A stretch of DNA of 64,000 nucleotides. It comes from Candidatus Dojkabacteria bacterium. GTDB lineage: Bacteria; Patescibacteriota; Dojkabacteria; B142; WJKM01. Within the stretch, counting starts at the first letter, position 1. Each line of letters opens with the position of its first letter. Shown here piece by piece: positions 5,405 to 61,794 of this stretch. The stretch spans positions 46,264 through 110,263 of the forward strand of contig WJKM01000011.1 in NCBI GenBank assembly GCA_014729085.1, written 5' to 3'. The notes under the pieces are model-generated. The model did not search any database. It had not been told where the DNA came from and saw only the letters and a list, made by a program, of their open reading frames with translations. Position numbers and translations under genes: made by a program.

Positions 5405-6502
5405 TTACTCCGAATCAGAGTAGGTTAAGTTTTGTGTGCCCCAATCTTTGATATCCACGAGAAATGGAATCCAACTATAGAATTCTCCATCTCTGTAAAC
5501 TTCACTTCTTAATAGTAAGTGATACTCATCATTTTCTATCACTTTTATAGCATCAAAGATTTGAATCTCTATAGTCTGGTAGTCATCTAAGGTATTATCA
5601 ACGCTCTGTAATATGGGATGTAACTGTCGCTTATACTTAAAATAGAGAGGATTACTTTCTATTGGTTTATACAAATGTTTAGGAAATATCATCCCGTCCT
5701 TTATCCTTTTATTTAATTCTTCTTTTGAAGCTGCATTGACAGTTTCAAATACTATATCCTCTTCAATTGTATCTTTCACTTGATATAAAGGATAATAAGT
5801 TGAATAATAAATATTAGATTCTGATGATTCAGAAATTAATATTACTTTCCCTGAAGGATAAGTTAAGTTTGGTATACCTTCATATGTAGGAAAAACATAC
5901 AAATCTAACCTATAAAGTTTTGTTTCATTTTCATCTAAACTTTGATCAAAAGGTTTTTGATTATAATATGCTTTTTCAAGATCAGCTCTAGGCAATCTAA
6001 TATTTTTCGGCGTTAATAAAAAATCGTCTTTTGCTAAATACCTATCTTTAATTTCTTCAATAGACATATAATCTTCGGATCTACTTGTAAAATCCCACTT
6101 TGAAATTATATCTTTAACTTCAGACTCAATACGCACCAATTGATCTTTGGGCATACCTTGTTTAAAAATATCGTATGATTGTATGTAAAGTATCTCATCA
6201 CTTTCAGGTACACCCTCAAATTTATCCATATTTATCTGAAAATTTTTATATGTTTTGACTAAATATTCTTGATATGGCTGTGATTTACTCGGTACGAAAG
6301 GAATCTCTTTTTCCTCCTCATTTCTTAACTCTGCTAGTTTAGTCTCGATATCATTTAATATATCCCCTCTAGTTATACTCCTTTCCTGTTTGGGTATACT
6401 CTTCCTTTTCTTTTGAATATTCCCAACCATAATTATACCGCTGGATACAAACAAAATTAGAACAAAAATACTTATAAGAATATATTTAATTTTTACTTTC
6501 AC
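5405..6502 (-). CDS. hypothetical N-terminally membrane-anchored protein; operonic partner immediately downstream of the giant M23/SLH protein
   Basis: 365-aa ORF. It has a signal-anchor 'ILISIFVLILFVSSGIIMV' followed by a Tyr/Glu-rich ectodomain. It starts 17 nt after the stop of the 6520-13485 gene on the same strand. Confidence 0.5.
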   Translation of the reverse strand: MKVKIKYILISIFVLILFVSSGIIMVGNIQKKRKSIPKQERSITRGDILNDIETKLAELRNEEEKEIPFVPSKSQPYQEYLVKTYKNFQINMDKFEGVPESDEILYIQSYDIFKQGMPKDQLVRIESEVKDIISKWDFTSRSEDYMSIEEIKDRYLAKDDFLLTPKNIRLPRADLEKAYYNQKPFDQSLDENETKLYRLDLYVFPTYEGIPNLTYPSGKVILISESSESNIYYSTYYPLYQVKDTIEEDIVFETVNAASKEELNKRIKDGMIFPKHLYKPIESNPLYFKYKRQLHPILQSVDNTLDDYQTIEIQIFDAIKVIENDEYHLLLRSEVYRDGEFYSWIPFLVDIKDWGTQNLTYSDSE

Positions 6503-6519
6503 TACAATCTAAATAATAA

Positions 6520-9500
6520 TTAAATTCTACTAGAAATTTCTGCCATTGCAGATGTAAAAACCCTGTCAGACCAATCTTTGAAATAATATGCGCTAACGCC
6601 CAAATCATACCTGCTATAATATCCTCCTTTCTCGAATAATGGTTTAAACACATCATAAGCAAACTTCTGTAATCTTACATCATCTTCCCATTTCTTGTAA
6701 TCTTCACTATTTTCTTTTGAACTTAAAAATTTACTTAGTTCTTCAATATCTCCCTTATACTCTTCACAGTCTGGTGCGCCCACGTACAAACACTTTTTTG
6801 AAAATGTACTTTTATATTGTTGAATTTCAGGGATTTTAATAAAAATTTCATAATGTAGATGTGAACCCTCCGTATTCCCCGTATTGTCAGAATACGCTAT
6901 CAACTCGCCTTTCTGAACTTCTTTATATTTACTTTGCTTATATAGATTGGACGTATTAGGATCCAGATGTAAATACCTTATCTGATATTTTTCATTCATT
7001 ACATCTACATAATATGCTCCCTGAGAATCCTTTCCCCTGAAATATGCAGTGCCATTTATGGTGGATACCAGTGGTGTATTATTCTGCATACTTATATCTA
7101 TTGCCGCCTTACGTCCATGGCTTAAACACCCACCCGTTGCATTACATAACCAGTCCTGAAATAAATTAAAATTTAGCTGATATTCTTCAGGGGAATTAAT
7201 CCATTTCGTGAGCTCACTCAATTTACGTTCTTCCGTCCAATTCTTAGTTTTCTGTTCGAATTTATTTATGTAAGTTTCTTTTAGAACAGACTCGAAAACA
7301 TCAAAACTTACAGGCGACTCTGTCGATATACAGCCCTGCTCCACATCATCTTCAAATGTCCAGTCCTCAAATTCTCTTCTTGTCATATTCACATAAAATG
7401 CCATAAGATCTCTTTGTACTTGCTGGTCTGGATAAAACATAGATCCCTCCTCTTTTACTCCATAATTTCCAAGACTTTGTATATATTTATAGAACATATA
7501 ATTTCTAGGTACATCTTGAAACAATGGGCTGTTATTTTTACAGCTGTATAAATTTGTAGCTTCAATCAGTATCTTTGCAAGTTGTCCTTTTGTTATATAC
7601 TCATCCGGTTTAAAGGTGCCATCTGAATATCCTTGTATAATTTTCTTATTTCTCAATGTATAAATATGTTCGAAAAATACATGGTCTTCCGGTACATCCG
7701 GAAATCTCTTACCTTCCGTATCTATCTTTAAATTAAAAGCATTCACTATAAATTTTGCTGTCTGGCCTCTTGTTACTAATCTTTTCGGATAGAAATTCCC
7801 ATCGCTATATCCATGAATTATATTTCTTTCTATTAGTTCTTCTATATGCTCCCAATATTTATTCCCGCATACATCTAGCATGCCCTTTCTTGGTTGACAT
7901 TCTTCTGCTGATTCTGCCTCTGCCTGCTCGATTTTTCTTTCTATTTCGCGATCTTCTAGCGTCAATATCTTTTCTTTATTACTCTTTCCGGAAACCATGT
8001 ACTCATTTTCTTCAGCATACCTTATATTGTAAATAAAATTTCGGAAAAGTTCGTCTCCCTCTGCTAAATTATTAATACTATCCCATACTTTCGTCCTAGC
8101 GTAAATAGTATCCCCCACATTCAACTCATCTCCAAGTACCAACTTTTTTGCCCAATTACCGTCTTTTTCGGCCCAAGTAAAAGCATTGTTCAATTCTAAG
8201 TCCCTACCAATTCTATTTTTATAAAGCTGAATTCCAACATGATCAAGCTGCTGATAGAATCTAAACTCGCGAACTGTTTGGTCAAAATATGTCACCTTTA
8301 AATTAAACTGAGCTTGTTTATAGGTAGATACTCCATATATCCACGCTGTATCTTTTTTAGGATTTACCTGTACTTCGGTGATAATAGGGGGACTTGGTTT
8401 ACCATAGAAATACTGAAGTTTCAACTGTCCGTTTTTATCAAATTCCACACCGACTTCTACTTCAAGCGTATCAGAAACAGCTACCTCTGACCCTGTCCCA
8501 TACTCCAAATTATTCACTATTTCCTTATCATTCAAATCTTTCAAATACTTTGACTTCAGCTCGTCAATTCTCTCTTGTGCAATATTTTCCCCAAGAACAT
8601 GTAAAGGATTTCTAGCAAAATCATCCTGAGTTTCGTGTATCTCCAGATGTAAATGACAGCCTTGCTTATCAAGATTATGATCAGGGTTGCCTCTCACATA
8701 ACCAGTATTGCCAGAAAGCCCAATGAGCTGTCCTTTTGCTACTTGGTCACCTTCATTTACCCAAACCTCATTTAAATGCCAATAATGGCTTTCAAGGGTT
8801 TCGCCAGAACTATCGAACAACGAATGCGAAAGGATGACATAATTTGCAGGAGTTTGGGAAGTACTATCATTTCCCATAACAATACCCTCGGTTCCGGTCT
8901 CTTTTACAGTTCCTCCATAGACTGCCTTAACAGGAGTGTTGCAGGGAATTCCAAAATCATCTGCATAGTGAAAATCCTCTTGTCTTGGAGCGAAAGGAAA
9001 AGTCAGCTCAGAAGCATCGCCAAAAGGCATTTCAAAATCAAGCTGAGCTATTTCTTCTAAGTCCAAAGATCCTAATCTACATACATATGCTTTGTGAATA
9101 AAACCAATAGTAAGATCATCCGAAGCAATAACTTTATACCAGTCGTCAAGTTCTTTAATAATTAAAATCTTGTCGCCATTATTTATTAGTTTAGTATTAG
9201 ATACTGAAAACCCGGTATACATATCCCTACTATTCCAGTCAGAGGCCATTTTTAGAGGAATTTCATGATCTAAATTACATACTTTTGCATTTTGGTAGAG
9301 TGGCTCTTCTGGACTTTGGACAGGTATATTGTAATCCGGATTCTTGTCTACAAAAACTCCAGGGATCCATCCTCTTGTTCCATCAGAAAGTCTTATATAG
9401 TACCAAGGGTCAGTTTTCTCTGGTGTTTTCTGAAGAATCTCAAATATTTCTCCAAATCCTATCCTTGTAATTTCAGAAAATTCGAATGAAGGTCCCATCC

Positions 9501-12500
9501 TAACTGAAATTGGTAATTCAGATATTAGAGCCCCCATATTCTCCTCTACTAAATCAGATACAATTGAGTATCCGCATGCTGTATTGGCTAGATTGCGGAT
9601 AACATCAAATTGAAGACTTTCAATTTGCCCAATTAGATCTCCATTTTCTGACAAAACTCTAACTTCCCATTCTGCTGGACCTTCTGGATAATCATCTTCA
9701 TGAGTTAAAAGAAAGGAAGCAGTATTATCAATTATTTCAAAGATACCGCGCCCCAAAATTCCATCTTCCAACTCGATCCAATTGCTAAAATCTCCGCCTG
9801 CCAATCTTAATCTCCCCTGTAATCTGAATCCATTCTGCCAATTCTCGACTTCTACATGAAGCCCATCATTATCTACAGCATCTCCAACACCACAGGCAGT
9901 ACCTGGAACAATGGGTGTAAGATATGAATTATTTATGTTTATTACCACTTCTTCTGTAACCGGAGGATTCTCAGGATCGAAATTACTATCTAAAACAAAT
10001 ACTTTATGGAAACTCGGGTAAGATTTATTATGTTCTTTATCCATTACCTGATGACCAATCCGATAAACTCCATCTGTAAAATATCTCTCTACTCTATCGT
10101 GCTCCACACACCTACTAAAAGAAGTACCCCAAAAAGCAGGATTATTATACTGAAGCGCTCTTCTATTAGTTCTCTCATTAATTGTATTGTAACTTGAGCT
10201 ACTTGTAAAAATTGGAGCACAGAGAATTCTCTTACGTACTGGTTCGGGTTGTCCATCTATTGGTAAGCTATTCAATTCTTCAATATAAAACACCGCCTGT
10301 TCCGGCCCTGATGGATAGGGTTGAGGATCAACATATTTTGCGTGAAAATATAATTCCCAGATATTATTTGTATAAACAATTCCATTAATCTCCATTCCTC
10401 CAGAATAGCTTACGTTTTCCACAAGCGGATCTAAAGTATCAGAGCCTATACCATACTCACCTTCATAAGCAGGTAATTCCTCACTCGAATCTGAATCGAT
10501 ATATTCATCTGGGATATTGGGGTTTGCACTGACAGAAAAATCTAATCTAAGAGTTTCTACTCCTTTCTCTGAAAACCAAGTTATTCCTTCATGCACCAGA
10601 TCTATTTCTAAACTATATTCGCCTGGCTGTGTAGGAGGAACTACTTCTAAAGCCAAACCCTGCTCTACCGAATTAAAGTATAAAAATTTAGAAAAATTTG
10701 TTCTTTTACCATCCCACTCATAAAGGCTTTCTTCTGTACAGACTTCACTATCGAGTTCACATTTCTTATACCAATGATAAGATGCTCTCACGGGATTTTC
10801 TCCCGCGTTTTGCCATGTAAGGCTTCCAGTGTTTTCGATATCTACAGGTATTATAAAAGACTCGTAAGCTAGAATTTCATTATTAACCTGTTCTCTTAAA
10901 TTATAGTCAGCTGAATATTTCTGAGCCAAAAGTATTTCATCAAAGTAAATACCACTTGCATTTCCATTTTTATAAAACTGAATATTGACTCTCTTAATTC
11001 CTTTTGTAGAATCTAATTTCCAATATACTAGACTTTGGAAAGGTTTCCTTTCTATTTCGTCAGGATTTTCATTTGAATTCCAAATTTTCATCTCTGTTGG
11101 GCTTCCAAAAGCTGAAATGTCTAATGCAACTACTTGACTATTTGTAAAGACATCATCATTGTTTATGATAATATCCCCACCAAACAAAGCTTCATCAGGG
11201 GACGAACTTCTTTTTGTTGTATTGTCAAGAATTATTGAATCGCTCTTAACTTCAGATACATTGCCGGCTTTATCTCGATATTTAACAAAGACGAAGGAAT
11301 GACCGGTCTCTGAAGCTAGATTATAATTAATTTCGCAGCTTAAATAAGTTGGGTCATCTCCTTGGCATGTCTCCCAATCACTCCAATTGTTTTGATCAGA
11401 ACTTAGGGAGTAGGATATAAAACCTGATCCAGGTACACAGTTTACTCCCTCCTGATTACACAAATCTGGGTCTTCAGCTGTAAGCGCCAAATTAACACTA
11501 GTAGAATTTGTTTTATATGAATCGTTGTTAATTTTTATACTTCCATTAGGAGACCTGGCATCTAAAATAATATTGTCACAAGATTCATCTGAAATATTTT
11601 CAGCCGAATCCTTAATTTGAATACAAATATTTTTCTCTCCATTTACTAAAGGATCTTTGAGGGAATCTATAACTCCCTTGGAAAAAGGTATCCAAGAACT
11701 ATATTCCTCAGCTTCACAAGTATCATTACAGTACTTAAACCTCATATATTTTGCTTCCAGCTCTGAATCTACCGCTATAGAAAGTGCCACTGTACTTTCA
11801 GAAGTATATTCTTCATTATTATTTATTATAATTGAAACTTGAGGTACTAAATGCTTCAATACTATCTCATCTGAAAAAACTTCAGAAACATTACCTGCCC
11901 TATCTTGAGTTTGCATAAATACTTTCAAAACCTCTCCGTCTATTCCATTATCCCAACTTAATATATCAGAAAAAACTTCTCCTTCTTCATATACTTGCCA
12001 ACCTGAAAATGCACTATTATCAAATGAAAATCGAATCTTTTCGACTCCGGATACTTGATTTTTATTAAATTCAAAACCTGGAATCGTAACAGGAGATAAA
12101 CTATCTGTACTTATAAATGAAATATAATTTTTTAATTTCCCTGTATATTCAGGATTTGATAAATCATACTCAAAATGCCCAATCAAAATATCTCGAAAGT
12201 CAATACTTTTTGAAAACTGCGTGGAATCGGGAGGTGTTATATCATAAACAAAACTCTCAGATGCTATGGAAACATTGCCTTTTTCATCAGTTATCTCGAT
12301 ATATTTGGAATGTCTACCTTCTGCCTGTAACAATGGTTTATGTTCAAGTATTGGAATTGTAAGTTCAGATCCATCCCATTTATTGCATACTACAGAATTA
12401 TTTTGCGAATCCATTCCCATTATTCGAGGGCAATTAGTATTAGGAAGAAAATCAAATGTAAACCAATTAAACCCATCATTTGAAAATCTTGCTCCTTTTA

Positions 12501-13485
12501 TTTCGTACGTGTTCTTAGTTGCTGAATATACGGCATTCAAATTGTTCAAATTGCTAGTGAATTCAATTCCACTCTCTTGATCGCTCTTAAAAAGGATATT
12601 ACCTGACGCCGGTATTGGCAATTCATTATTAGACTCGTCCACATATTCAATTATTTCATTGCCAAGTTCTGTACCTGTCCAATCCTTTTTGGGATCTAGA
12701 AGTTCTGAGATTTGAGGTGCTTCCCCAGACGCTCCATTAAATTTGAAAATTATATCGTTGTAATCTTTGTCACTTCTATGTCCTTCATCCATTCTCTGGT
12801 CCTCGATTGCGAAACCTTTTCCTCCTCCCGTTATATCTCCTATCTGGCCGTAGTAAAAGATATCCTCAGGATTTGAAGTTGCCATTGAGAAAAGGGGTCT
12901 TTTTTTACCACCAATATCAGGATTTTCATAAACTTCTTGAACTGTTCCATCGGGTACAAGCATAACTCCAAATTCTTCATACGGCTGCATCCAAAAGCTC
13001 TTAAATCCCATATAGGGCCCTGAATTGTGATTACCATCACCATTTAGCGGTCCATCAAACCTAGCTCCCTCCTGTATATCCGAAATAATTACAAAACCTT
13101 CCGATTCAGACAGAGCTCTTTTTGCTGCCTCCTCAATGAATTCTTCGGGATTGCTTAATGATCTCATCCCATTTAAAGAAAAAATAGCAAGTTCTCCTTT
13201 ATATCCACCGCCATCAAAAACGAAATCAGTTAAGATTTTTCCTGTTTTTCCTGTTGTAAATACACCTGAAGTAAATTCTAAATTCTCAGTTAAAGTTAAA
13301 TTTTCCTCCTCAAATATCTCTCCTGAACTAACTAATAATCTACCAGAAGCAGATACTTGTTCATCTGAATTTAAATCTTCTCCCGACTGTGCATAAGATA
13401 TTGAATTTAAAATAAACAATGGTTGTAAAAAGAAATACAGGCACATTAATAAACAAAATATACGCTTAAAATTTACTTTTCTCAT
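6520..13485 (-). CDS. giant (2321 aa) secreted multidomain cell-wall hydrolase: signal peptide, DUF4114-like N-domain, Ig/FN-like repeats, two SH3b-like modules, M23 peptidase domain 1, three SLH repeats, M23 peptidase domain 2
   Basis: Uninterrupted 6.9-kb ORF with N-terminal signal 'LLMCLYFFLQPLFILNSISYAQS'. Two M23 metal-binding segments: '...NTGYVRGNPDHNLDKQGCHLHLEIHE' and 'NTGNTEGSHLHYEIF'. SLH motifs: 'HGYSDGNFYPKRLVTRGQTAKFIVNAF', 'QGYSDGTFKPDEYITKGQLAKILIEA', plus a third degenerate copy. SH3b-like: 'DPWYYIRLSDGTRGWIPGVFV' and 'GDKILIIKELDDWYKVIASDDLTIGFIHKAYV'. Confidence 0.85.
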   Translation of the reverse strand: MRKVNFKRIFCLLMCLYFFLQPLFILNSISYAQSGEDLNSDEQVSASGRLLVSSGEIFEEENLTLTENLEFTSGVFTTGKTGKILTDFVFDGGGYKGELAIFSLNGMRSLSNPEEFIEEAAKRALSESEGFVIISDIQEGARFDGPLNGDGNHNSGPYMGFKSFWMQPYEEFGVMLVPDGTVQEVYENPDIGGKKRPLFSMATSNPEDIFYYGQIGDITGGGKGFAIEDQRMDEGHRSDKDYNDIIFKFNGASGEAPQISELLDPKKDWTGTELGNEIIEYVDESNNELPIPASGNILFKSDQESGIEFTSNLNNLNAVYSATKNTYEIKGARFSNDGFNWFTFDFLPNTNCPRIMGMDSQNNSVVCNKWDGSELTIPILEHKPLLQAEGRHSKYIEITDEKGNVSIASESFVYDITPPDSTQFSKSIDFRDILIGHFEYDLSNPEYTGKLKNYISFISTDSLSPVTIPGFEFNKNQVSGVEKIRFSFDNSAFSGWQVYEEGEVFSDILSWDNGIDGEVLKVFMQTQDRAGNVSEVFSDEIVLKHLVPQVSIIINNNEEYTSESTVALSIAVDSELEAKYMRFKYCNDTCEAEEYSSWIPFSKGVIDSLKDPLVNGEKNICIQIKDSAENISDESCDNIILDARSPNGSIKINNDSYKTNSTSVNLALTAEDPDLCNQEGVNCVPGSGFISYSLSSDQNNWSDWETCQGDDPTYLSCEINYNLASETGHSFVFVKYRDKAGNVSEVKSDSIILDNTTKRSSSPDEALFGGDIIINNDDVFTNSQVVALDISAFGSPTEMKIWNSNENPDEIERKPFQSLVYWKLDSTKGIKRVNIQFYKNGNASGIYFDEILLAQKYSADYNLREQVNNEILAYESFIIPVDIENTGSLTWQNAGENPVRASYHWYKKCELDSEVCTEESLYEWDGKRTNFSKFLYFNSVEQGLALEVVPPTQPGEYSLEIDLVHEGITWFSEKGVETLRLDFSVSANPNIPDEYIDSDSSEELPAYEGEYGIGSDTLDPLVENVSYSGGMEINGIVYTNNIWELYFHAKYVDPQPYPSGPEQAVFYIEELNSLPIDGQPEPVRKRILCAPIFTSSSSYNTINERTNRRALQYNNPAFWGTSFSRCVEHDRVERYFTDGVYRIGHQVMDKEHNKSYPSFHKVFVLDSNFDPENPPVTEEVVININNSYLTPIVPGTACGVGDAVDNDGLHVEVENWQNGFRLQGRLRLAGGDFSNWIELEDGILGRGIFEIIDNTASFLLTHEDDYPEGPAEWEVRVLSENGDLIGQIESLQFDVIRNLANTACGYSIVSDLVEENMGALISELPISVRMGPSFEFSEITRIGFGEIFEILQKTPEKTDPWYYIRLSDGTRGWIPGVFVDKNPDYNIPVQSPEEPLYQNAKVCNLDHEIPLKMASDWNSRDMYTGFSVSNTKLINNGDKILIIKELDDWYKVIASDDLTIGFIHKAYVCRLGSLDLEEIAQLDFEMPFGDASELTFPFAPRQEDFHYADDFGIPCNTPVKAVYGGTVKETGTEGIVMGNDSTSQTPANYVILSHSLFDSSGETLESHYWHLNEVWVNEGDQVAKGQLIGLSGNTGYVRGNPDHNLDKQGCHLHLEIHETQDDFARNPLHVLGENIAQERIDELKSKYLKDLNDKEIVNNLEYGTGSEVAVSDTLEVEVGVEFDKNGQLKLQYFYGKPSPPIITEVQVNPKKDTAWIYGVSTYKQAQFNLKVTYFDQTVREFRFYQQLDHVGIQLYKNRIGRDLELNNAFTWAEKDGNWAKKLVLGDELNVGDTIYARTKVWDSINNLAEGDELFRNFIYNIRYAEENEYMVSGKSNKEKILTLEDREIERKIEQAEAESAEECQPRKGMLDVCGNKYWEHIEELIERNIIHGYSDGNFYPKRLVTRGQTAKFIVNAFNLKIDTEGKRFPDVPEDHVFFEHIYTLRNKKIIQGYSDGTFKPDEYITKGQLAKILIEATNLYSCKNNSPLFQDVPRNYMFYKYIQSLGNYGVKEEGSMFYPDQQVQRDLMAFYVNMTRREFEDWTFEDDVEQGCISTESPVSFDVFESVLKETYINKFEQKTKNWTEERKLSELTKWINSPEEYQLNFNLFQDWLCNATGGCLSHGRKAAIDISMQNNTPLVSTINGTAYFRGKDSQGAYYVDVMNEKYQIRYLHLDPNTSNLYKQSKYKEVQKGELIAYSDNTGNTEGSHLHYEIFIKIPEIQQYKSTFSKKCLYVGAPDCEEYKGDIEELSKFLSSKENSEDYKKWEDDVRLQKFAYDVFKPLFEKGGYYSRYDLGVSAYYFKDWSDRVFTSAMAEISSRI
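6845..7150 (-). other. M23 peptidase domain 2 (C-terminal) of the giant protein
   Basis: 'GTAYFRGKDSQGAYYVDV...IRYLHLD...ELIAYSDNTGNTEGSHLHYEIF' covers the HxxxD and HxH M23 motifs. Confidence 0.65.
7386..7820 (-). other. three tandem S-layer homology (SLH) repeats inside the giant protein
   Basis: Back-translated SLH motifs at about 7748-7816, 7565-7640 and 7386-7490. These lie between the two M23 domains. Confidence 0.7.
8620..8980 (-). other. M23 (LytM-type) peptidase domain 1 of the giant protein
   Basis: 'FGIPCNTPVKAVYGGTV' upstream part and the 'CHLHLEIHE' HxH motif (codons at about 8641-8664). Confidence 0.7.
9076..9415 (-). other. two SH3b-like modules inside the giant protein
   Basis: Located by back-translating 'DPWYYIRLSDGTRGWIPGVFV' (about 9330-9415) and 'NGDKILIIKELDDWYKVIASDDLTIGFIHKAYV' (about 9076-9180). 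Confidence 0.45.
12735..13215 (-). other. DUF4114-like N-terminal domain of the giant protein (tentative)
   Basis: 'GFAIEDQRMDEGHRSDKDYNDIIFKF' resembles the conserved FED...D-Y/F-N-D core I remember for DUF4114. Boundaries approximate. Confidence 0.35.
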
Positions 13486-13835
13486 ATCTTTTAAAAATCA
13501 GTTTAGATAATCAGGAATAATTATCCTCCTTAAAATACGCAGAATATAACCCTCGTTGCATTCGTAATTAGTTGTCCCATCCGGTAGAACAGAACGCCAG
13601 CTTGTACGGGAAAGTGCAAATTTTCAATTTCTTTTACAACGAACCTCTATTTGTACTTTATATGATTTAATAAAAACAAATTAACTATAGTTATAAATAT
13701 CCAATACGGATTTTATTCAAAATCAAAAATTCGAAGAAAATAATTATTCCTAATAATTTGTAACATTAGAAAAAAATTGATGCATTGTGATGCAATACAA
13801 AATTTGAAAGAAAATCTGTTTTTTAAAAGAATTGA

Positions 13836-51081: not shown

Positions 51082-54000
51082 CTATTCAATAACAATCTCT
51101 TGTGACTTATCCAAATAATTTACCATAGTGGGATCATCCATAGATTGAATGATAGGTGTTTCTGCCTTGAAAGTTCCCTTTGAAACAACTCTTGCATAGT
51201 ACTCAATTGTCTTATATCTGGAGTTTTTATACACACAGAAACTACTTCTCTGTCCCTCTATCGAATATGGGTGCTTGTAAGAGTACATCTCTTCGTAATG
51301 ATAACCTCTTTTATAAGGACTGCTTACTGCCTTTAATCCGGCAGGTAGTATATCGCTTACTTGATAACACTTACCCTTTGGTGCATTCCCACCAATATCA
51401 AATTTTATCTCAACTCTAACCAAATCAGTATCCTTAAATGTTGTACTTTCCACCCCGCCGATTGTATACTTCCTTGTTAAGGAAAGATCTTCATCCTTTG
51501 GTAAAATTTCTGGATTGACTGCTTTGTCAAATGTTGAAATTATCCCTAAGTTTCCATCAACAGAATTAAATTTGAATTTCTTCAACTCAGAAGGAGATAA
51601 CTGAACTTTATAAACCTCACCTTTTTCCAACTCTATCTTCTCATTTTTGCTCCCAGCTTCATATTCGAATGTTACAGGGGCTTTTGGCAACAATGGTAGT
51701 ACTGCCTGCAAATATCTTGCCTCCTCCAATCCGGTAAGATTATATTTAGAATTATGAGTGTCTATGTATTCATAAAGATCCTCTCCTTCTTCTTCATTTA
51801 AGATTCCTGCAAGCATGGTGACCAGAGCTGTTATTTCTACATTCTCATTTTGATCATCGCTGACCTTAATAAGAATTGAACCTTCCGAATTTGTTCTATA
51901 CTCTTGAATGATGTCTTTATATACATCTCTTGCATACTCTTTATTACCAATTTCTGCGGATGCAAGTGCAAGATATATTTCTTCCTTGACGCTTAAATCA
52001 TTCTGTTGCTTAAGCATCTTAATATAAGTCAAAACCGGTTCTTTTAGAGCGGCCAATCCATAAACGGCTTGTATACCTCTTTCCCGTCCTTCTTCTTTAT
52101 TATCCAAAATTGAGTAAAAATAATCTGCTAGAGCCAGCTGATCAAATTTTTCACTAGCAATCGCAGCTACTTTTGCAGACAATTCTAAATCTTTGTCACT
52201 GTATGGGAATAGAGAAATCCCCCCACTCTCGGTTTGATAGTTTTCCGGTCTCCAATACTCTTCCGAAAATTCTTCTACATCAAAATGTTCTTCAAACATT
52301 TCTTTGGATAAAAGCCTTACTATCTTTTGATCAACCCTATCTCCCCAGGTAAACTGCAAATACAATACATCATCATAATATTTGCCACGATTTTCATCTA
52401 AGAAGGTAAGAGTCGTCGGAGAATCTTTACTCCCTTCCAGTTTTGTATCCGGAGAATATTCATAAAAATTAACCTCTTGAATTTTCAAGAATGATGACTT
52501 TATATTGATCTCTTTTTGTATCTTATCCTCATAATCTCCTACTTTTGCTCCTACTATTATTTTGTGAGTTCCCTGCTTCAATTCGTTTAATTCGAACTCT
52601 ATAGATTCGAAAGCTTTAGCCTTAACTTTCTTTCCTTCAATACCTAGGGTCTTTGCTTCGATAGTATACTCAACATCCCAATCCGACTTTAGTTCGTCCC
52701 CATAAGCTCTTGCCTTGATTATTGGTTTATCGCCTTCTAGGTATACATCGTTCATAACCAAGTCAACAAAAAACGGTAAGGAAACATCCACATTTGTTTC
52801 GTTATCTCCTGCATATAGGTCCGGAGATATTGCCTGCGATGTAACATGCCATGATGTGATATTGTCCGGTGCTACAAACTCGACACTTCCCTTTCCACTT
52901 TCGTCTGTTTTCACTGTTGTAAATAAAGCTGTATCCACAAACCATTGCCGGGCTTCTTTGTTATGTACAAAAATTCCGTCTGCAAAGTAGGTGTGGTATT
53001 CATCAATTTCTAAATTATAAATATCGAAATCTCCTGTCCTACTCTCAATAGTCTCTATTTCTACCCATTCATTCTTATCATTTAACATAAAATCTCCAGC
53101 TCTTATATCTCTTGCCTGCTTCCATTGACCATTTATATACATAAAATGAATTGGAGTTACTCGCAACTTTCTATTAATATAAAGATACTCTTCTCCTTTA
53201 TGATGCATTGTTTCTAACACCTTAGCTTCCACGAAATTACTCGACTCCTCACTCTCTTTAGTGAGTACAATATCCCCAATTTCTACATCTTCAATATTTT
53301 TCAACTTAAAACCTTTCATTAAAATTTTTGTCCCAGGAAGAAAACATGTATCGCCTTTACCACCAGCAGCAGGCTCTGGCATTATGTGAGATCCGTACGT
53401 TTGCAGTATCCCGGAAGTAACATTTTTGTATAAAGAATTTAATGGATAAGGCTTTTTATCCATCAGTTGAAACATTGCTTCATCAATAATGCTGAAATTC
53501 ACATCACTCTTTTTTCCCTTCCCGCTTTGATCTTTCACACTGACATCAATTTTAATCTCGTCTCTTGGTTTGTAATTTGTCTTTTCAGGGGTTAGTTTAA
53601 TATCGAGCTCCCTTTCGTTCTGATAATAATCAATATTATAATTTCCAGTTTCCTTGAATGTCTGTCCGTCAAAATAAACTCCTTTTATGAAAATATTTGG
53701 TATATGTTCCTTTTTAAACGTCATGGAGAATCTTGAATTATCTTGAACTTTATATTCATCTATACCCTGTTGAGCATATAGGTAAAGAAATGAGGTGTTC
53801 TCCCCAGAAGGAATTTGCTCAGCATTATTCATGAACGCCATATCCACTCTTTCATTTAGTTTATAACCCGAACCATTCTCTCTATCTTTTTTGGATGTAA
53901 CTTCTAAATAATAATGATCTCTTGACTCGTAATCAAATGACCTACCATAAATATAGCTCCTTTTTTCCATTCCATGTCCATCTACATCAGTTGTCCAAAA

Positions 54001-56643
54001 GTCGATATAATAATATTTATCCTCAGTAGTATCGAATTCGAATATAGCTTCTCCCTTTGCATTAGTAGTTATAACGCTTTCGCCTAAAGCCCGGCTTCTT
54101 CTTTTATAATCATATTTCTTACGATTTACTTTATCAATATAATCATAATACTCACCAACCTCTATTCTTTCATACCATTCTTCAGTTAGATTGACTTTTA
54201 TTTCTTTATTCACAATAGGATCTGCAAGATAATCCTCTGTATTCTTTGCAGTACCATTATTGAGTCTCTCTAAAGTAATTTTATTCAATTTTACTGTAGC
54301 TTTCCTTTTATTTTTTGCTGTTCTTTCTGTTTCAACTTTCATATTAGTCCGAAAATTAAATACTCTGACATGCTTTGTACCTTCTATTTCTCCTTCTTCG
54401 GAACGCTTTGGGTGCACATAAACAGAAGAATGTTGAGGATATATATGATCCTCCATTCCTCTTGGCTGCTTATAACTAATAGCGAATTTACCATCCTCAC
54501 TTGACGTAACTTCGCCATCAGGCGCATCGTAAATTGTATATTCTAAAGGAATATTCGCTACAGGAGTTCCTTCAAAGAACTCAGTTTTCCCATCAATCTT
54601 AATTTCTTCATCCCAGAAATAAGCTTCCTTGTTAGAATCAAGAGAGATTTTATATGCTGGTTTTGTGTAAGTCTCCACCCTGAAACCGTCTTCAATAATT
54701 AACTGTTCATTTTCATCATATATCGAAATAGTGTAATATCCTGTCTGGAGATTCATCAGAGGAACCTGGTCTGTAAAAGTACCATTCTCACTAACCTCAA
54801 TGCGTTTAGAATAAATACTAACAGGATTATAGTAATAATCAAAGTAACCCGATTTTGTTACTTTGACTGTTAATTCGGTATTATCCGAACCATACCTCTT
54901 TTTAGCAAGTCCCCAAAAGCTAACCGTATCCGTAGGTTTATATAAATCCCTGTCTGTATATACATATGACCAATAATCCTGAGACTCATTTCCATAATAG
55001 TAATAATCTTCATCATAATAATAATTGTACCCTCCATAGTATCCATAATATGAATCTGTCGTTGGTATAACTACCTGTCCTGCCTCCCCCTTAATTTTAA
55101 ATACATAGGATCTATAAGTGTCTTTTAATTCTTTAGGTGTATCGAACTCAGCTATTCCCTGCTCATTTGTTTTATGAACACTTGATCCAGACATTTGCAG
55201 TTGGATTGTCGCATTTGAATCAGGCTTTTTAGTTTGATGATTCATTATCCATGCAATACTCTTTTTCTCAGATGTGGTTAAAAATACGGTTGTATCAGTT
55301 ACCTGAAACCATGCCTGAATTTTCTCCCCTTCTGCATAATGAGCATCTATTAAATAAAACCCCCCTGGAAGAACATCGGGTAGTACTATGTATCCAGTAG
55401 ATCCTTCATTTGAATACTGAATCGGAACTTCAGCAGTCAAGACTTTCTCTAAACTGCTTATGTCTTGCATATAGGTCGCTTTAGTATTATATGCCCACAC
55501 AGGTACTTGTAATTTTTCATTTAATGTATTTGCATATTGCTCAATGTCTTTAAATTGGAATACATCGACTAGTATTGTATTTTGATTTCTTTCACCCCAA
55601 TATGTGAAGGTAGGTTTTCTTGTAGTTGGAAATTCAAAGCTGTCTTTTCTGAAACTTGGCCTTGATGCCCTTTCAATTTTAGTTTCAAATTGGAAAGTAT
55701 AATCTTCTTCAAGTTTTTCATCTGTTTCATTCAGCTTAAGTCCTTTTTTGATCCTCACAGTATATAATTGTCCTGCTTGAAAGCCTCCATTTGGAACAAA
55801 TACAGCTGTTCGCCTTGCTCTTTCAAATCTTCCAGAAACTGAAGGTGAAATTTCGAAATAAGGTTGTATATCTTCGAAATTCTCATGGCTGAAGGTAATT
55901 TCTACCCCCGAATTTGCCGGTGCCGAACTCGACTTGTCAGCAGGATGCGTCTGAATAATTCTAAATGGATTTTTAACTTGAAACGCCCAAGACAAATCTT
56001 TTTTAGTCTCTTCGTCTTCTGGGTCTTCTATAATTGCAATATCTAAATTGTTTACAGAGTTTACCTTCAATTCTTCTTTCATAGAAACCTTGAAAATATT
56101 ATCTTCCACTTTGGTAACAGTATAATCAGTTTCTGGAATTACCATTAAACTATCTTCAAGATCATTTTGTTCTATTTCCTTCTCGGTCTCAATAATGAAA
56201 TCTGAATCTTTTTCAATACCTGTTGGGTCCTCCTCCGTGGCTTTTACATTTATTTCCGAAGGCGATATATGTAATCTTGGCCTTTCCTCCTGTTCCTGGG
56301 ATTCCGGTTTAGGGGAAGTCCGTTCTACCTTAAAATAACTCCATCCAAGTATTATTAATATAAACCCGATCAAGCCTAAGACTAAAAAGATTCCAATCCC
56401 AAAAACAACTTTTTTTTGTTCTTTTATCTTTGTCAATAAGCTAGATTTCTTTTTAATTTTTTGTACATCCTGACTTTCCGTCGATTCATTTTTTTTATTT
56501 ACGGAACTATTTGATTCAACCTCCTGTTCCTGGCTTTGTTTTTTCATTTGAGTATTAAAAAAGGTTAGATATATCTTTATTGTATTTTGTATTAGCAATA
56601 GTATCAAGTTAATATTGCGCCTTTCTATATCTAAGACGCACAT
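51082..56643 (-). CDS. membrane-anchored alpha-2-macroglobulin-family protein lacking a thioester motif, with an inserted Hint/BIL domain
   Basis: 1853-aa ORF; the probable start is the 'MKKQSQEQ' Met at about 56547. TM anchor 'VVFGIGIFLVLGLIGFILIILGW' and long beta-rich MG-like repeats. 'IIDEAMFQL' (cf. A2M 'VDEAVLxL' preceding the bait region), 'ITSWHVTSQ' (cf. 'FPETWLW') and C-terminal 'DILPAGLK...YYARVVSKGTF' (cf. A2M receptor-binding 'DPLPAGFE...YxARAVTPG'). No C-x-E-Q. Confidence 0.8.
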   Translation of the reverse strand: MCVLDIERRNINLILLLIQNTIKIYLTFFNTQMKKQSQEQEVESNSSVNKKNESTESQDVQKIKKKSSLLTKIKEQKKVVFGIGIFLVLGLIGFILIILGWSYFKVERTSPKPESQEQEERPRLHISPSEINVKATEEDPTGIEKDSDFIIETEKEIEQNDLEDSLMVIPETDYTVTKVEDNIFKVSMKEELKVNSVNNLDIAIIEDPEDEETKKDLSWAFQVKNPFRIIQTHPADKSSSAPANSGVEITFSHENFEDIQPYFEISPSVSGRFERARRTAVFVPNGGFQAGQLYTVRIKKGLKLNETDEKLEEDYTFQFETKIERASRPSFRKDSFEFPTTRKPTFTYWGERNQNTILVDVFQFKDIEQYANTLNEKLQVPVWAYNTKATYMQDISSLEKVLTAEVPIQYSNEGSTGYIVLPDVLPGGFYLIDAHYAEGEKIQAWFQVTDTTVFLTTSEKKSIAWIMNHQTKKPDSNATIQLQMSGSSVHKTNEQGIAEFDTPKELKDTYRSYVFKIKGEAGQVVIPTTDSYYGYYGGYNYYYDEDYYYYGNESQDYWSYVYTDRDLYKPTDTVSFWGLAKKRYGSDNTELTVKVTKSGYFDYYYNPVSIYSKRIEVSENGTFTDQVPLMNLQTGYYTISIYDENEQLIIEDGFRVETYTKPAYKISLDSNKEAYFWDEEIKIDGKTEFFEGTPVANIPLEYTIYDAPDGEVTSSEDGKFAISYKQPRGMEDHIYPQHSSVYVHPKRSEEGEIEGTKHVRVFNFRTNMKVETERTAKNKRKATVKLNKITLERLNNGTAKNTEDYLADPIVNKEIKVNLTEEWYERIEVGEYYDYIDKVNRKKYDYKRRSRALGESVITTNAKGEAIFEFDTTEDKYYYIDFWTTDVDGHGMEKRSYIYGRSFDYESRDHYYLEVTSKKDRENGSGYKLNERVDMAFMNNAEQIPSGENTSFLYLYAQQGIDEYKVQDNSRFSMTFKKEHIPNIFIKGVYFDGQTFKETGNYNIDYYQNERELDIKLTPEKTNYKPRDEIKIDVSVKDQSGKGKKSDVNFSIIDEAMFQLMDKKPYPLNSLYKNVTSGILQTYGSHIMPEPAAGGKGDTCFLPGTKILMKGFKLKNIEDVEIGDIVLTKESEESSNFVEAKVLETMHHKGEEYLYINRKLRVTPIHFMYINGQWKQARDIRAGDFMLNDKNEWVEIETIESRTGDFDIYNLEIDEYHTYFADGIFVHNKEARQWFVDTALFTTVKTDESGKGSVEFVAPDNITSWHVTSQAISPDLYAGDNETNVDVSLPFFVDLVMNDVYLEGDKPIIKARAYGDELKSDWDVEYTIEAKTLGIEGKKVKAKAFESIEFELNELKQGTHKIIVGAKVGDYEDKIQKEINIKSSFLKIQEVNFYEYSPDTKLEGSKDSPTTLTFLDENRGKYYDDVLYLQFTWGDRVDQKIVRLLSKEMFEEHFDVEEFSEEYWRPENYQTESGGISLFPYSDKDLELSAKVAAIASEKFDQLALADYFYSILDNKEEGRERGIQAVYGLAALKEPVLTYIKMLKQQNDLSVKEEIYLALASAEIGNKEYARDVYKDIIQEYRTNSEGSILIKVSDDQNENVEITALVTMLAGILNEEEGEDLYEYIDTHNSKYNLTGLEEARYLQAVLPLLPKAPVTFEYEAGSKNEKIELEKGEVYKVQLSPSELKKFKFNSVDGNLGIISTFDKAVNPEILPKDEDLSLTRKYTIGGVESTTFKDTDLVRVEIKFDIGGNAPKGKCYQVSDILPAGLKAVSSPYKRGYHYEEMYSYKHPYSIEGQRSSFCVYKNSRYKTIEYYARVVSKGTFKAETPIIQSMDDPTMVNYLDKSQEIVIE
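52960..53346 (-). other. Hint (intein-like, BIL-type) domain inserted in the alpha-2-macroglobulin-like protein
   Basis: 129 aa. Block A 'CFLPGTKIL', block B 'VTPIHFMY' (TxxH), block F/G 'YHTYFADGIFVHN'. It is followed by Lys rather than C/S/T. No homing-endonuclease insert. Confidence 0.7.
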
Positions 56644-59523: not shown

Positions 59524-61794
59524 ATGCCAAGAAATCTTTATCGTACTGAACCCACGGTCATAAATCAGATTGAGAGGACAAAAAAAAGAACTGGAAGTAA
59601 ATATCTTGAGGTTGCAACTAGTAATAAAAAGAAGCTTAAAGAGTTCAGCAGGGTTTTAACTGATTATGAAATTATAGGCAAAAATTTTGATATAGAAGAG
59701 ATACAATCCAATGATCCAATTAAAGTTATCAAACAAAAGGCTAAAGGAGCTTATGAACAAAACAAGTTCAATCCTATCCTAGTTGAGGATACCTCTCTTG
59801 AGATTAAAGGCTTGCATGGCCGACCTGGAACTTATGTAAAGGATTTTTGTGCTGAAGCTGGGATGAGGAAAATAATAGTTGAGGAATGGCTAAAGAATAA
59901 AGATCGCTCTGCTGTGGCAAGGGTTTTATTAGGACTTTTCGATGGTATGGAAGTGCATATCTGGGAAGGAAAAACTCAGGGAAGAATCGCTAAAAAACTC
60001 AGAGGAACAAATGGTTTTGGCTGGGATGATATATTTATTCCCAAAGGCCAAAAAACAAGAAAAGCAAGAACTTTTGCTGAAATGCAAGATAAAGAAAAAG
60101 ATAAATATTCCATGAGAAAGAAAGCTTTAAATAAGTTCCTTTCAAATCCAGTGGAAATGAATTATCCAGTATTTAGAATTCCAGAGCCTTATGAGCAGGA
60201 AATGAAAAGAGTTCAACCTGATAAACTGCAACAGTCCAAAGCAATAGAATTTGCTTTTCAGTTAGAATGCCTTGAACAAAAAAACAGTCCAAACAAAAGT
60301 TTTAAGGCTGATAAATATACATCATTGGTAACCACACAAAATCCATACTTTACGAGATTTCTAACAAAACCAAATACAAAAAGTATAGGCCTAATACTTA
60401 CAGATGTAGACAGAAAAAGATTAAAATTTTATAAAAATGGAGATCCTGTTTTATGGCAGATGGGACCAGAAAGACGTTTCCTAGCTTTAGCACAGCGAAC
60501 AGAATATTTTATGCATAACCAAAATGAAGAAATACATGAAATCCTTGATGACCTAGAAAATAGAAAATCAAATTTCCCTAAAAGAAACAATTTGCGATCT
60601 CCCACAATCGATAAAGCACTTGAGGTGGCCGGCGCTACATCTATCACAAAAGCTTTGTCCTTGAGAGAAATTGGATACAAGAAAATATCAGCTGATAAAT
60701 ATGTTAGCCGTACTAAAAGCGCAAAATATGGGCTCTTCAATATTGTTGGGAAGTATGCAAGGAGTATTTATGGAGTGGGTTGTCTCCCATGGGTTTCTGG
60801 ATGGAGAGATGTCATTGTAACTTCCGCCATTGGACATATTCCCGTCTTTGTCCATAGAAATAATATTAATGCTATAGATTTTCGAAATCAGATAGATTTG
60901 ATTAAAGAGAGCAAAAAGGTTATCGCCAAACTTAAACTTTCGAAGAAAGGAATTAGAAGAGCATACCAAAATATTGGCGCCGCAATTGGATGCCATCCAA
61001 TGAGAGACTTAGAAAGAGCCAAGAGACTTTATAAGGAAGCTGGTATCAAGCTTTTTAGAATTTACACTATTAACTCCGATCCCCGTGTAATTGAAACTGC
61101 TCATGCATTGAGAAAATATTTTGGCGATGAAATAGAAATCTTTGTCGGGCAACTGGTAGACAAGAAGCAGTGCAAACAATTAATACAATCAGACATTAAT
61201 GTAGATGGACTAATATTTGGGCATGGAGGCGGAAGGCAGTGTACCTCGGCAACTAACGGGATGGCCCTCTCTACTCTTGAGGAAATCTACAGTATTACAA
61301 CTGATAAAAAATTTAATAATACATCTTTATTGGTTGAAGGAGGGATAGGTTCTTATGTAGGTGGTCTACTAGTAATGGGCGTAGACTGTATCCTACGCAA
61401 TGCTCAATTTGCAAATTGTGTTATTGAACAAGGAGATACTTATTTTGAGTATCAAGACGGCAGACTTTGCCAACCCTATCATGGAAGTGCTAGTGCGCCG
61501 ACAATGATTATCGAATCTTTTAATAAAGAAAATGCAGAGAAAAAACTTTTCTATAGTGGTCGTACTAAAAATGTAGAAGGAACATCAGGATATATTTTCT
61601 ACAAGGAAAAAGCCAACTCTATGACTTTTTATATTAACCAATTTAAACACTATGCTGCTCGCACCCTAGCTGATATGGGCGTGGACAGTTTATGGGAGTT
61701 AAGAGATTTTTTGCAGAGTAATGAGGATGAGCTTTTAAGAGTAGTATCCCAGGACGCTGCATATACAGCTTCTGCTTGGAATCAGGGCCAATGA
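59524..61794 (+). CDS. fusion protein: N-terminal Ham1/RdgB-type non-canonical purine NTP pyrophosphatase (ITPase) + C-terminal IMPDH/GMP-reductase-family TIM-barrel domain
   Basis: N-terminal: 'LEVATSNKKKLKEF', 'EDTSLEIKGLHGRPGTYVKDF', 'GFGWDDIFIPKGQKTRKARTFAEMQDKEKDKYSMRKKALNKF' (Ham1 motifs). C-terminal: 'NIGAAIGCHPMRDLERAKRLYKEAGIKLFRIYTINSDPRVIETAHA...', catalytic-loop-like 'IFGHGGGRQCTSAT' (Cys codon 61240-61242) and 'LLVEGGIGSYVGGLLVMGVDCILRNA...YHGSAS' (cf. IMPDH 'IADGGIR.SGDI.KALAAGA..VM.GS..AG...YRGMGS'). No CBS pair seen. Confidence 0.75.
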   Translation: MPRNLYRTEPTVINQIERTKKRTGSKYLEVATSNKKKLKEFSRVLTDYEIIGKNFDIEEIQSNDPIKVIKQKAKGAYEQNKFNPILVEDTSLEIKGLHGRPGTYVKDFCAEAGMRKIIVEEWLKNKDRSAVARVLLGLFDGMEVHIWEGKTQGRIAKKLRGTNGFGWDDIFIPKGQKTRKARTFAEMQDKEKDKYSMRKKALNKFLSNPVEMNYPVFRIPEPYEQEMKRVQPDKLQQSKAIEFAFQLECLEQKNSPNKSFKADKYTSLVTTQNPYFTRFLTKPNTKSIGLILTDVDRKRLKFYKNGDPVLWQMGPERRFLALAQRTEYFMHNQNEEIHEILDDLENRKSNFPKRNNLRSPTIDKALEVAGATSITKALSLREIGYKKISADKYVSRTKSAKYGLFNIVGKYARSIYGVGCLPWVSGWRDVIVTSAIGHIPVFVHRNNINAIDFRNQIDLIKESKKVIAKLKLSKKGIRRAYQNIGAAIGCHPMRDLERAKRLYKEAGIKLFRIYTINSDPRVIETAHALRKYFGDEIEIFVGQLVDKKQCKQLIQSDINVDGLIFGHGGGRQCTSATNGMALSTLEEIYSITTDKKFNNTSLLVEGGIGSYVGGLLVMGVDCILRNAQFANCVIEQGDTYFEYQDGRLCQPYHGSASAPTMIIESFNKENAEKKLFYSGRTKNVEGTSGYIFYKEKANSMTFYINQFKHYAARTLADMGVDSLWELRDFLQSNEDELLRVVSQDAAYTASAWNQGQ

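Follow-up and report, generated by a model that had tools for sequence, protein, structure and literature searches.

A giant M23 protein with an internal SLH module and a lectin-like tip of cyanobacterial type in a Candidatus Dojkabacteria genome

Gene and domain organization

The window considered here, a stretch of 64,000 nucleotides from a Candidatus Dojkabacteria bacterium (contig WJKM01000011.1, positions 46,264 to 110,263, assembly GCA_014729085.1), harbors on its minus strand, at positions 6520-13485, one unbroken open reading frame (ORF) of 2321 codons starting with ATG. Judging by its translation, the product (hereafter the giant) is a Sec-exported modular protein in which every domain is of a known kind, and its gene is already annotated as an M23 peptidase: the sequence is identical to MBD3362785.1, entitled 'peptidoglycan DD-metalloendopeptidase family protein [Candidatus Dojkabacteria bacterium]' by NCBI, which is encoded on a 301,743-bp contig of a Candidatus Dojkabacteria metagenome-assembled genome (MAG) and is the sole member of its 90% cluster. 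From the N- to the C-terminus, the predicted order is a signal peptide, a LecB-like module, a stalk of ~1000 residues, two peptidoglycan-binding SH3b modules, an M23 domain and, after a linker, an SLH module that precedes another M23 domain. New here are the recognition of a family of giant stalked M23 proteins extending across the candidate phyla radiation (CPR), the internal SLH module flanked by two M23 domains, an arrangement common to at least one relative, and a probable cyanobacterial lectin module at the tip of the giant. The features of the giant and of the gene that follows it are listed below.

13390..13485, minus strand: Sec-type signal peptide, aa 1-32, read by eye from the translation, with a putative cleavage site
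12616..13296, minus strand: N-terminal lectin-like module, aa ~64-290, including DUF4114 (aa 166-251, Pfam) and an acidic DKDYND loop
10426..12615, minus strand: conserved beta-rich core, aa 291-1020, Ig-like units with I-x-I-N-N-x-x-x-T and a D-x-VHEG-x-TWFS domain at the end, delimited by identity to relatives
9538..10425, minus strand: second stalk region, aa 1021-1316, conserved with the relative P0129 only
9349..9507, minus strand: SH3b module 1, aa 1327-1379, Pfam SH3_3, kept in the CPR family of giants
9082..9186, minus strand: SH3b module 2, aa ~1434-1468, second stretch of Pfam SH3_3 (pieces 6 and 7)
8623..8973, minus strand: peptidase M23 domain 1, aa 1505-1621, Pfam 5e-16
7882..8565, minus strand: linker domain, aa 1641-1868, conserved with P0129 (6e-14) and a Doudnabacteria ORF, no Pfam match
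7381..7881, minus strand: SLH module, aa 1869-2035, repeats 1 and 2 certain by Pfam, repeat 3 putative and degenerate
6838..7119, minus strand: peptidase M23 domain 2, aa 2123-2216, Pfam 3e-13, alignments to ShyA, TagE and LytU
6523..6837, minus strand: C-terminal tail, aa 2217-2321 (105 aa), no match in Pfam or relatives
5405..6502, minus strand: downstream gene, 365 aa, N-terminal membrane anchor, 17-nt gap, self-match MBD3362784.1 only

The [G + C] content around the gene is ~33%, a composition at which chance stop codons are frequent. The relative P0129 is aligned to the giant as a single BLAST segment over aa 292-2046, so that an assembly artefact can be dismissed and there is no sign of a frameshift. 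This agrees with an earlier interpretation made from the DNA letters alone (the sequence-only reading), which had described an uninterrupted ORF of ~6.9 kb while raising the chance of frameshifts in it. Pfam was run on the whole giant and on ten overlapping 340-residue pieces, and of the domains named by that reading it recovered DUF4114, both copies of SH3_3, both copies of Peptidase_M23 and two SLH repeats. The signal peptide that it had also named is legible in the translation (MRKVNFKR, a hydrophobic core and SYA/QS), in which no sortase motif, lipobox or C-terminal transmembrane segment is found.

SH3b and M23 domains

The two SH3b-like modules are matched by SH3_3 (PF08239) with 48.7 bits for both copies together, above the cut-off. 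Both M23 domains exceed the Pfam cut-off of 28.7 bits for PF01551 (MEROPS M23B), the first with 59.2 bits over aa 1505-1621 and the second with 50.0 bits over aa 2127-2216. NCBIfam agrees, giving MepM/ShyA-type matches on both domains and a weak SpoIIQ-like match on the first, and their matches in the PDB include ShyA, TagE, lysostaphin, zoocin A, LytM and LytU.

All canonical positions are present in M23 domain 1. The stretch H1506-YAD-D1510 (HYADD) corresponds in alignments to HNGTD in ShyA and to HVGVD in zoocin A, an additional catalytic His lies in YWH1570L, and H1611-L-H1613 follows, with an insert of ~10 residues ahead of this HxH motif. By its residues, the domain is thus predicted to be a fully canonical zinc endopeptidase, nothing arguing against its activity. 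M23 domain 2 keeps D2130, H2173 (YLH2173L) and H2209-L-H2211 in alignment with ShyA, TagE and LytU, that is, four of five conserved positions. Its first motif reads SH2123GRKAAID2130 and does not have the canonical H-x-x-x-D spacing; in an ungapped alignment with LytU the zinc-binding His falls on Lys2126, and His2123 lies three residues upstream. The simplest description would be a three-residue insertion within H-x-G-x-D that displaces the first zinc-binding His. In the relatives described below, the second M23 domains are canonical at this motif (HDGID, HNGTD, HGGID or HKGYD). The sequence-only reading had considered that both domains might lack their metal ligands; the set is complete in the first, and in the second one member is displaced.

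SLH module

Two SLH repeats are recognized by Pfam (PF00395, cut-off 20.8 bits): repeat 1 at aa 1877-1910 (1e-11, 44.8 bits) and repeat 2 at aa 1927-1970 (4e-12, 46.4 bits). Scanned alone, the region proposed as repeat 3 (aa ~1986-2035) has no Pfam match. It is covered by an NCBIfam match in which aa 1877-2031 align with the three-SLH tail in the model of a Bacillus NEAT/LRR protein, and the matches to the SLH module, which span query positions 570-735, in many cases run to positions 730-735, through repeat 3. Since alignments to three-SLH modules run through aa ~1986-2035 while Pfam alone is silent, this region is taken as a putative degenerate third repeat. Of the three repeats claimed earlier, two are thus confirmed by Pfam and the third is supported only by the three-SLH-module alignments. 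SLH proteins have been reported in several cultured or enriched epibiotic Patescibacteria, where they were proposed to contact the host (PMC13059738).

N-terminal lectin-like module

The DUF4114-like domain noticed earlier at the N-terminus is clearly identified by Pfam at aa 166-251 (1e-18, 68 bits against a cut-off of 27). The AlphaFold2 model of the N-terminal module has a mean confidence (pLDDT) of 85.8, and when it was submitted to Foldseek three of the five top matches were LecB-family lectins, all weak and not significant. A profile search of PDB sequences with the alignment of the lectin module returned no LecB match; its sole result, the propeller lectin BP39L, was a summed repeat match and was judged spurious. 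The DUF4114 domain of Myxococcus PilY1.1 has been reported to bind Ca2+ and proposed to bind exopolysaccharide, according to a passage of PMC12058595 that cites Xue 2022, and because of this description the module may be regarded with moderate confidence as a probable Ca2+-dependent glycan-binding domain.

The strongest matches to the whole giant are not peptidases but more than 100 giant proteins of filamentous cyanobacteria (Roseofilum, Microcoleus, Lyngbya, Symploca, Coleofasciculus, Nostoc and others). They cover only residues ~64-290 of the giant, a module of ~215 aa, with 50-59% identity. In an alignment of 133 modules, the Dojkabacteria copy has a median identity of 53.5% to the others, compared with a median of 60% among cyanobacteria; 15 of the 132 other modules diverge more than the Dojkabacteria copy, which falls inside the set in a rough neighbour-joining tree. 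Because the module sits within cyanobacterial diversity and the CPR relatives of the giant lack it, the most economical explanation would be a horizontal acquisition from filamentous cyanobacteria.

In the cyanobacterial carriers, the module is followed by an S8 protease and then by either a wall hydrolase (M23, CHAP, amidase or lysozyme-like) or a toxin end (AHH, EndoU_bacteria, Ntox44 or ART-PolyVal). In its home lineage the module therefore belongs to proteins aimed at other cells or cell walls.

Hundreds of giants of filamentous cyanobacteria, all outside the window (P0002-P0120 were examined), start with the motif '(T/A)FILEPILTPSG(L/I)VD'. It is followed by an acidic linker, one or two DUF4114 lectin-like modules, the S8 protease and variable ends, and the examined proteins have no obvious Sec signal. 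These DUF4114-S8 giants look like an undescribed polymorphic effector family with its own export signal.

Stalk and CPR family

A word-index homology search with the C-terminal 1021 aa of the giant gave only seven weak matches. The family to which it belongs was revealed by an exhaustive HMMER search of 1.84 billion cluster representatives, which found the giants P0129 (3275 aa, E 4e-122), P0130 (3292 aa), P0138 (3418 aa), P0144 (2438 aa) and P0229 (2050 aa). On the basis of these comparisons, the giant is a member of an unnamed CPR family of secreted proteins, 1.6-3.4 kaa in length, that shares a beta-rich core of ~730 aa followed by SH3b-SH3b-M23. The core has 28-38% identity to P0129, P0130, P0138, P0144, P0229 and P0018. 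With phmmer, it was found in P0129, P0130, P0138, P0144, P0229 and a Doudnabacteria ORF (locus L005) with E-values of 1e-65 to 1e-132, and in the same set SH3b gave 1e-12 to 1e-24 and M23 gave 1e-15 to 1e-58. When an alignment of the 730-residue core was scanned against one genome per species, the full core was present in MAGs labelled Saccharibacteria, Doudnabacteria and Dojkabacteria, and only its last domain in Actinomycetota and Chloroflexota; the ORFs of the CPR loci with core, SH3b and M23 are 1.7-3.4 kaa long. No paper describing this family was found in a literature search.

P0129, with 34% identity to the giant over aa 292-2046, has two M23 domains and SLH repeats by Pfam, in the same order M23-linker-SLH-M23, as phmmer confirms domain by domain. 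Two M23 domains are also present in a Dojkabacteria ORF (L011), and in a Saccharibacteria ORF (L004) the core is followed by SLH and then by M23. P0130 consists of core, SLH, SH3b, M23, SLH and Peptidase_C39_2, and P0138 of core, SH3b, M23 and LGFP, with a CdiA-CT RNase A-like match at its C-terminus. The C-termini of the family thus vary between M23, Peptidase_C39_2 and a weak CdiA-CT RNase A-like match, that of the giant itself being M23 and the 105-aa tail. The double M23 bracketing SLH had been called an unusual organization. Because its elements are shared by P0129, L011, P0130 and L004, it is not a one-off and is better described as one variant within a modular family. The relatives differ from the giant in beginning with DUF11/CLIPPER-type repeats instead of the DUF4114 lectin, and in the canonical H-x-G-x-D of their second M23 domain.

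Over aa 291-1316 of the giant, Pfam and NCBIfam give only sub-threshold Ig-like matches (Big_13, OmpL47-type), and self-BLAST at E <= 0.01 detects no internal repeats. The long beta-rich repeat region of the sequence-only reading may therefore be kept as beta-rich and Ig-like, at the level of these sub-threshold matches, but not as a repeat region. The second stalk region (aa 1021-1316) matches P0129 only (phmmer 9e-31) and has no Pfam match.

The last domain of the core (window positions 10516-10926, aa ~854-990) carries the motifs N-x-G-S-x-T-W, P-V-x-x-S-Y-H-W and D-x-VHEG-x-TWFS. It stands alone in many genomes of Actinomycetota and Chloroflexota and in some Firmicutes, with 33-40% identity and no Pfam assignment.

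Downstream gene and 5' region

The gene at 5405-6502 (minus strand) starts 17 nt past the stop codon of the giant. Since this same-strand gap contains no terminator-like site, the two genes are probably co-transcribed. The first ~33 residues of the product form a hydrophobic helix, the sole confident part of its AlphaFold2 model, in agreement with the membrane anchor proposed earlier for this closely spaced gene. An immunity or chaperone role, also proposed, finds no support: among 5.8 billion clusters the protein has no homologue other than itself (MBD3362784.1) and is an ORFan, no Pfam or NCBIfam family is assigned to it, its single-sequence AlphaFold2 model is unusable (pLDDT 37), and neither BLAST nor phmmer detects any similarity to the genes that come after P0129 and P0122. 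In both the P0129 and P0122 loci, the giant gene is directly followed by a gene for a small N-terminally anchored protein, and these two genes share no similarity; in the P0018 locus, the next gene is a convergent one for a histidine kinase and there is no co-oriented downstream gene.

In two relatives' loci (L003 15830-20213 and L002 6085-7650), one to four small genes, coding for products that begin with a membrane anchor or a signal peptide, lie directly after the giant M23 gene. They belong to no family, apart from one with a DKNYY domain; their position is conserved and their sequence is not.

In the 5' region of the giant gene, the only strong Shine-Dalgarno-like site is AAGGAGG at 13523-13529 (minus strand), ~40 nt upstream of the ATG. 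After this site comes a mini-frame of six codons initiated by ATT, and no start codon of the long frame precedes the ATG at 13485. A riboswitch or leader in the 350-nt 5' region (13486-13835) was considered and dropped, as there was no worthwhile Rfam match even at E up to 10; the fold energy of the region equals that of shuffles (z = 0), and promoter and terminator scans likewise showed no difference from shuffles.

Other genes of the window

The rest of the window has ordinary reduced-genome content, including two tRNA genes, transporters, a two-component system, RtcB, a RecD-like helicase, glutamate dehydrogenase and an ABC/MacB/HlyD exporter. A bacterial alpha-2-macroglobulin of 1853 aa (MG2, A2M_BRD, A2M, bMG10) is encoded at 51082-56643 (minus strand) and contains a Hint/intein-like insert at aa ~1100-1228, between the bait-region and A2M domains (PT-HINT 2e-13, Intein_splicing 5e-5, Vint), which is unusual inside an A2M. 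The gene at 59524-61794 (plus strand) codes for a 756-aa fusion of a Ham1/ITPase-like domain (aa 30-206) and an IMPDH/GMP-reductase-like barrel (aa 454-728).

Comparison with known proteins

With lysostaphin, zoocin A, LytM and LytU the giant has in common the M23 fold and motifs and SH3b targeting modules; unlike it, these proteins have 250-500 aa and one catalytic domain, without SLH, lectin or stalk. No FemABX-type immunity gene, as might be looked for by comparison with lysostaphin-type systems, is present among the scanned ORFs of the window. The BSL proteins of Bacillus anthracis, BslO and AmiA among them, combine a three-SLH module with a wall hydrolase. The giant resembles them in joining SLH repeats to a predicted wall hydrolase, and its SLH part matches the three-SLH tail model of a Bacillus NEAT/LRR protein, but in the BSL hydrolases the SLH part is terminal and the single catalytic domain is of another class, whereas the SLH part of the giant lies internally, with an M23 domain on either side, and the producer is a CPR bacterium.

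The cyanobacterial DUF4114-S8 proteins share with the giant the lectin-like module at 50-59% identity, and many of them also contain M23, CHAP, amidase, SH3_3 or LysM; they have the FILEPILTPSG start instead of a signal peptide of the giant's type, possess an S8 protease and lack the CPR core and SLH. Compared with the Ca2+-dependent fucose/mannose lectins PA-IIL/LecB, the module of the giant is twice as long, has no sequence-profile match and is not significantly similar in Foldseek. The CPR relatives share the ~730-aa core and SH3b-SH3b-M23 at only 28-38% identity, P0129 also having in common with the giant the linker, the SLH module and another M23 domain at the C-terminus. The giant genes of predatory Omnitrophota (bioRxiv 10.1101/2023.11.21.568195) likewise encode very large secreted proteins of ultrasmall putative predators, implicated in adhesion and wall degradation, but they belong to another phylum, are far larger and contain other domains, the paper naming neither M23 nor SLH.

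Possible function

We tentatively favor, as a possible function, that of an SLH-tethered adhesin and peptidoglycan endopeptidase acting where an epibiont contacts its host. After export, the SLH module would hold the giant non-covalently on the wall polymer of the producer itself, and the stalk would project the lectin outward to a glycan on a neighbouring (host) cell. The two envelopes would be drawn together, allowing the SH3b-M23 units to cut peptide cross-links in the peptidoglycan of the partner, and the local opening of the wall could serve attachment, feeding, or the passage of pili or secretion machinery. As the lectin appears to come from filamentous cyanobacteria, the bound glycan is perhaps one carried by cyanobacteria or by their neighbours in mats. 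The general idea of an SLH-tethered peptidoglycan endopeptidase, already present in the sequence-only reading, is a reasonable one, its domain reading being right. The choice that it left between wall remodelling and attack on other cells cannot be made from sequence; because the lectin module is shared with cyanobacterial polymorphic toxins and the C-terminal cargo of the relatives varies, the balance leans toward an inter-cellular role. Proteins directed against other cells typically have a modular C-terminus that can be exchanged. Epibiotic growth of Southlakia epibionticum, the one genetically tractable Saccharibacterium, requires envelope proteins that carry glycan-binding domains (PMC10633639).

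Several observations weigh against this function at the contact zone, chief among them the geometry. Both M23 domains adjoin the SLH module, ~1600 residues from the lectin tip, and if SLH binds the wall of the producer the catalytic domains would be located at that same wall, which suits an autolysin about equally well. M23 domain 2 may be catalytically dead, given the displaced His of its first motif. Neither csaB/PS_pyruv_trans, the pyruvyl transferase needed for a pyruvylated wall polymer as SLH ligand, nor any other SLH protein was found among the 42 Pfam-scanned ORFs of the 64-kb window, from which several smaller ORFs were left out (the contig being at least 302 kb long). The CdiA-CT RNase A-like match of P0138 (aa 3301-3387) reaches 25.5 bits, below the Pfam cut-off of 27. 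Moreover, we know of no host or lifestyle for Dojkabacteria.

A housekeeping autolysin, for which SLH would fix the giant in the wall of its own cell, M23 would cut the cell's own cross-links, and lectin and stalk would only organize the surface layer, appears somewhat unlikely, as do the purposes it might then have, namely growth, separation or budding of daughter cells, or insertion of envelope-spanning machines. Besides the position of the M23 domains on either side of SLH, it is favored by the best NCBIfam and PDB matches, which are the housekeeping DD-endopeptidases MepM and ShyA, in agreement with the NCBI annotation, and by the well-known precedent of BslO and AmiA, SLH-anchored hydrolases that separate daughter cells in B. 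anthracis. However, it would require 7 kb of a reduced CPR genome to be spent on a task for which housekeeping M23 enzymes use only a few hundred residues, with a lectin module found otherwise on polymorphic toxin and lysin proteins. The swapping of C-terminal cargo among family members is unexpected for a core division enzyme, and the absence of any relative above 50% identity among 15 billion proteins indicates fast evolution.

The lack of a covalent anchor, already noted, is also what would be expected of a released bacteriolysin in the style of lysostaphin or zoocin A, which would diffuse, target the envelope of a victim through lectin, SH3b and SLH, and lyse it with M23, the downstream membrane protein perhaps protecting the producer. 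M23 with SH3b is the layout of lysostaphin, which figures in the PDB matches together with zoocin A and LytM; pyruvylated wall polysaccharide, the ligand of SLH, occurs on the walls of cyanobacteria and many Firmicutes; and a small anchored gene lies right after the giant here and in two relatives' loci. We nonetheless regard such a lysin, and with it the protective partner, as unlikely: SLH proteins are common in Patescibacteria themselves, which makes self-anchoring simpler, a stalked protein of 260 kDa would be an odd diffusible lysin, and the downstream genes are mutually dissimilar or, for P0018, absent in the same orientation. It is very improbable that the giant serves as a scaffold of surface-layer or adhesin type, with M23 domains that bind or activate without being catalytic, as in EnvC, NlpD and SpoIIQ. 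The missing canonical first zinc-binding His of M23 domain 2 and the weak SpoIIQ-like match on domain 1 would fit a scaffold, but domain 1 retains every catalytic and metal-binding residue and domain 2 four of five, whereas degenerate LytM domains normally lose several of them.

An extended version of the tethered adhesin-endopeptidase reading, more speculative and in our estimate quite unlikely, would make the giant a host-recognition and wall-breaching device of a Dojkabacterium living or preying on filamentous mat cyanobacteria or their close neighbours. The lectin would have been captured from the toxin arsenal of these cyanobacteria and would recognize their glycan, SLH would perhaps dock on cyanobacterial pyruvylated wall polysaccharide, and the giant and its relatives would represent CPR-wide 'stalked lysin' effectors with exchangeable warheads. 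Should the CdiA-CT RNase A match of P0138 be real, the family of CPR giants would include true toxin-delivering members.

The giant and its relatives are concrete, testable candidates for the means by which ultrasmall CPR bacteria recognize, attach to and open the envelopes of their hosts. The lectin module held in common with cyanobacterial toxins provides a specific hypothesis on the partner organism or on the glycan that may be bound. Even if the giant proves to be an autolysin, a family of giant wall hydrolases not described before and a transfer of a domain between cyanobacteria and CPR would have been documented.

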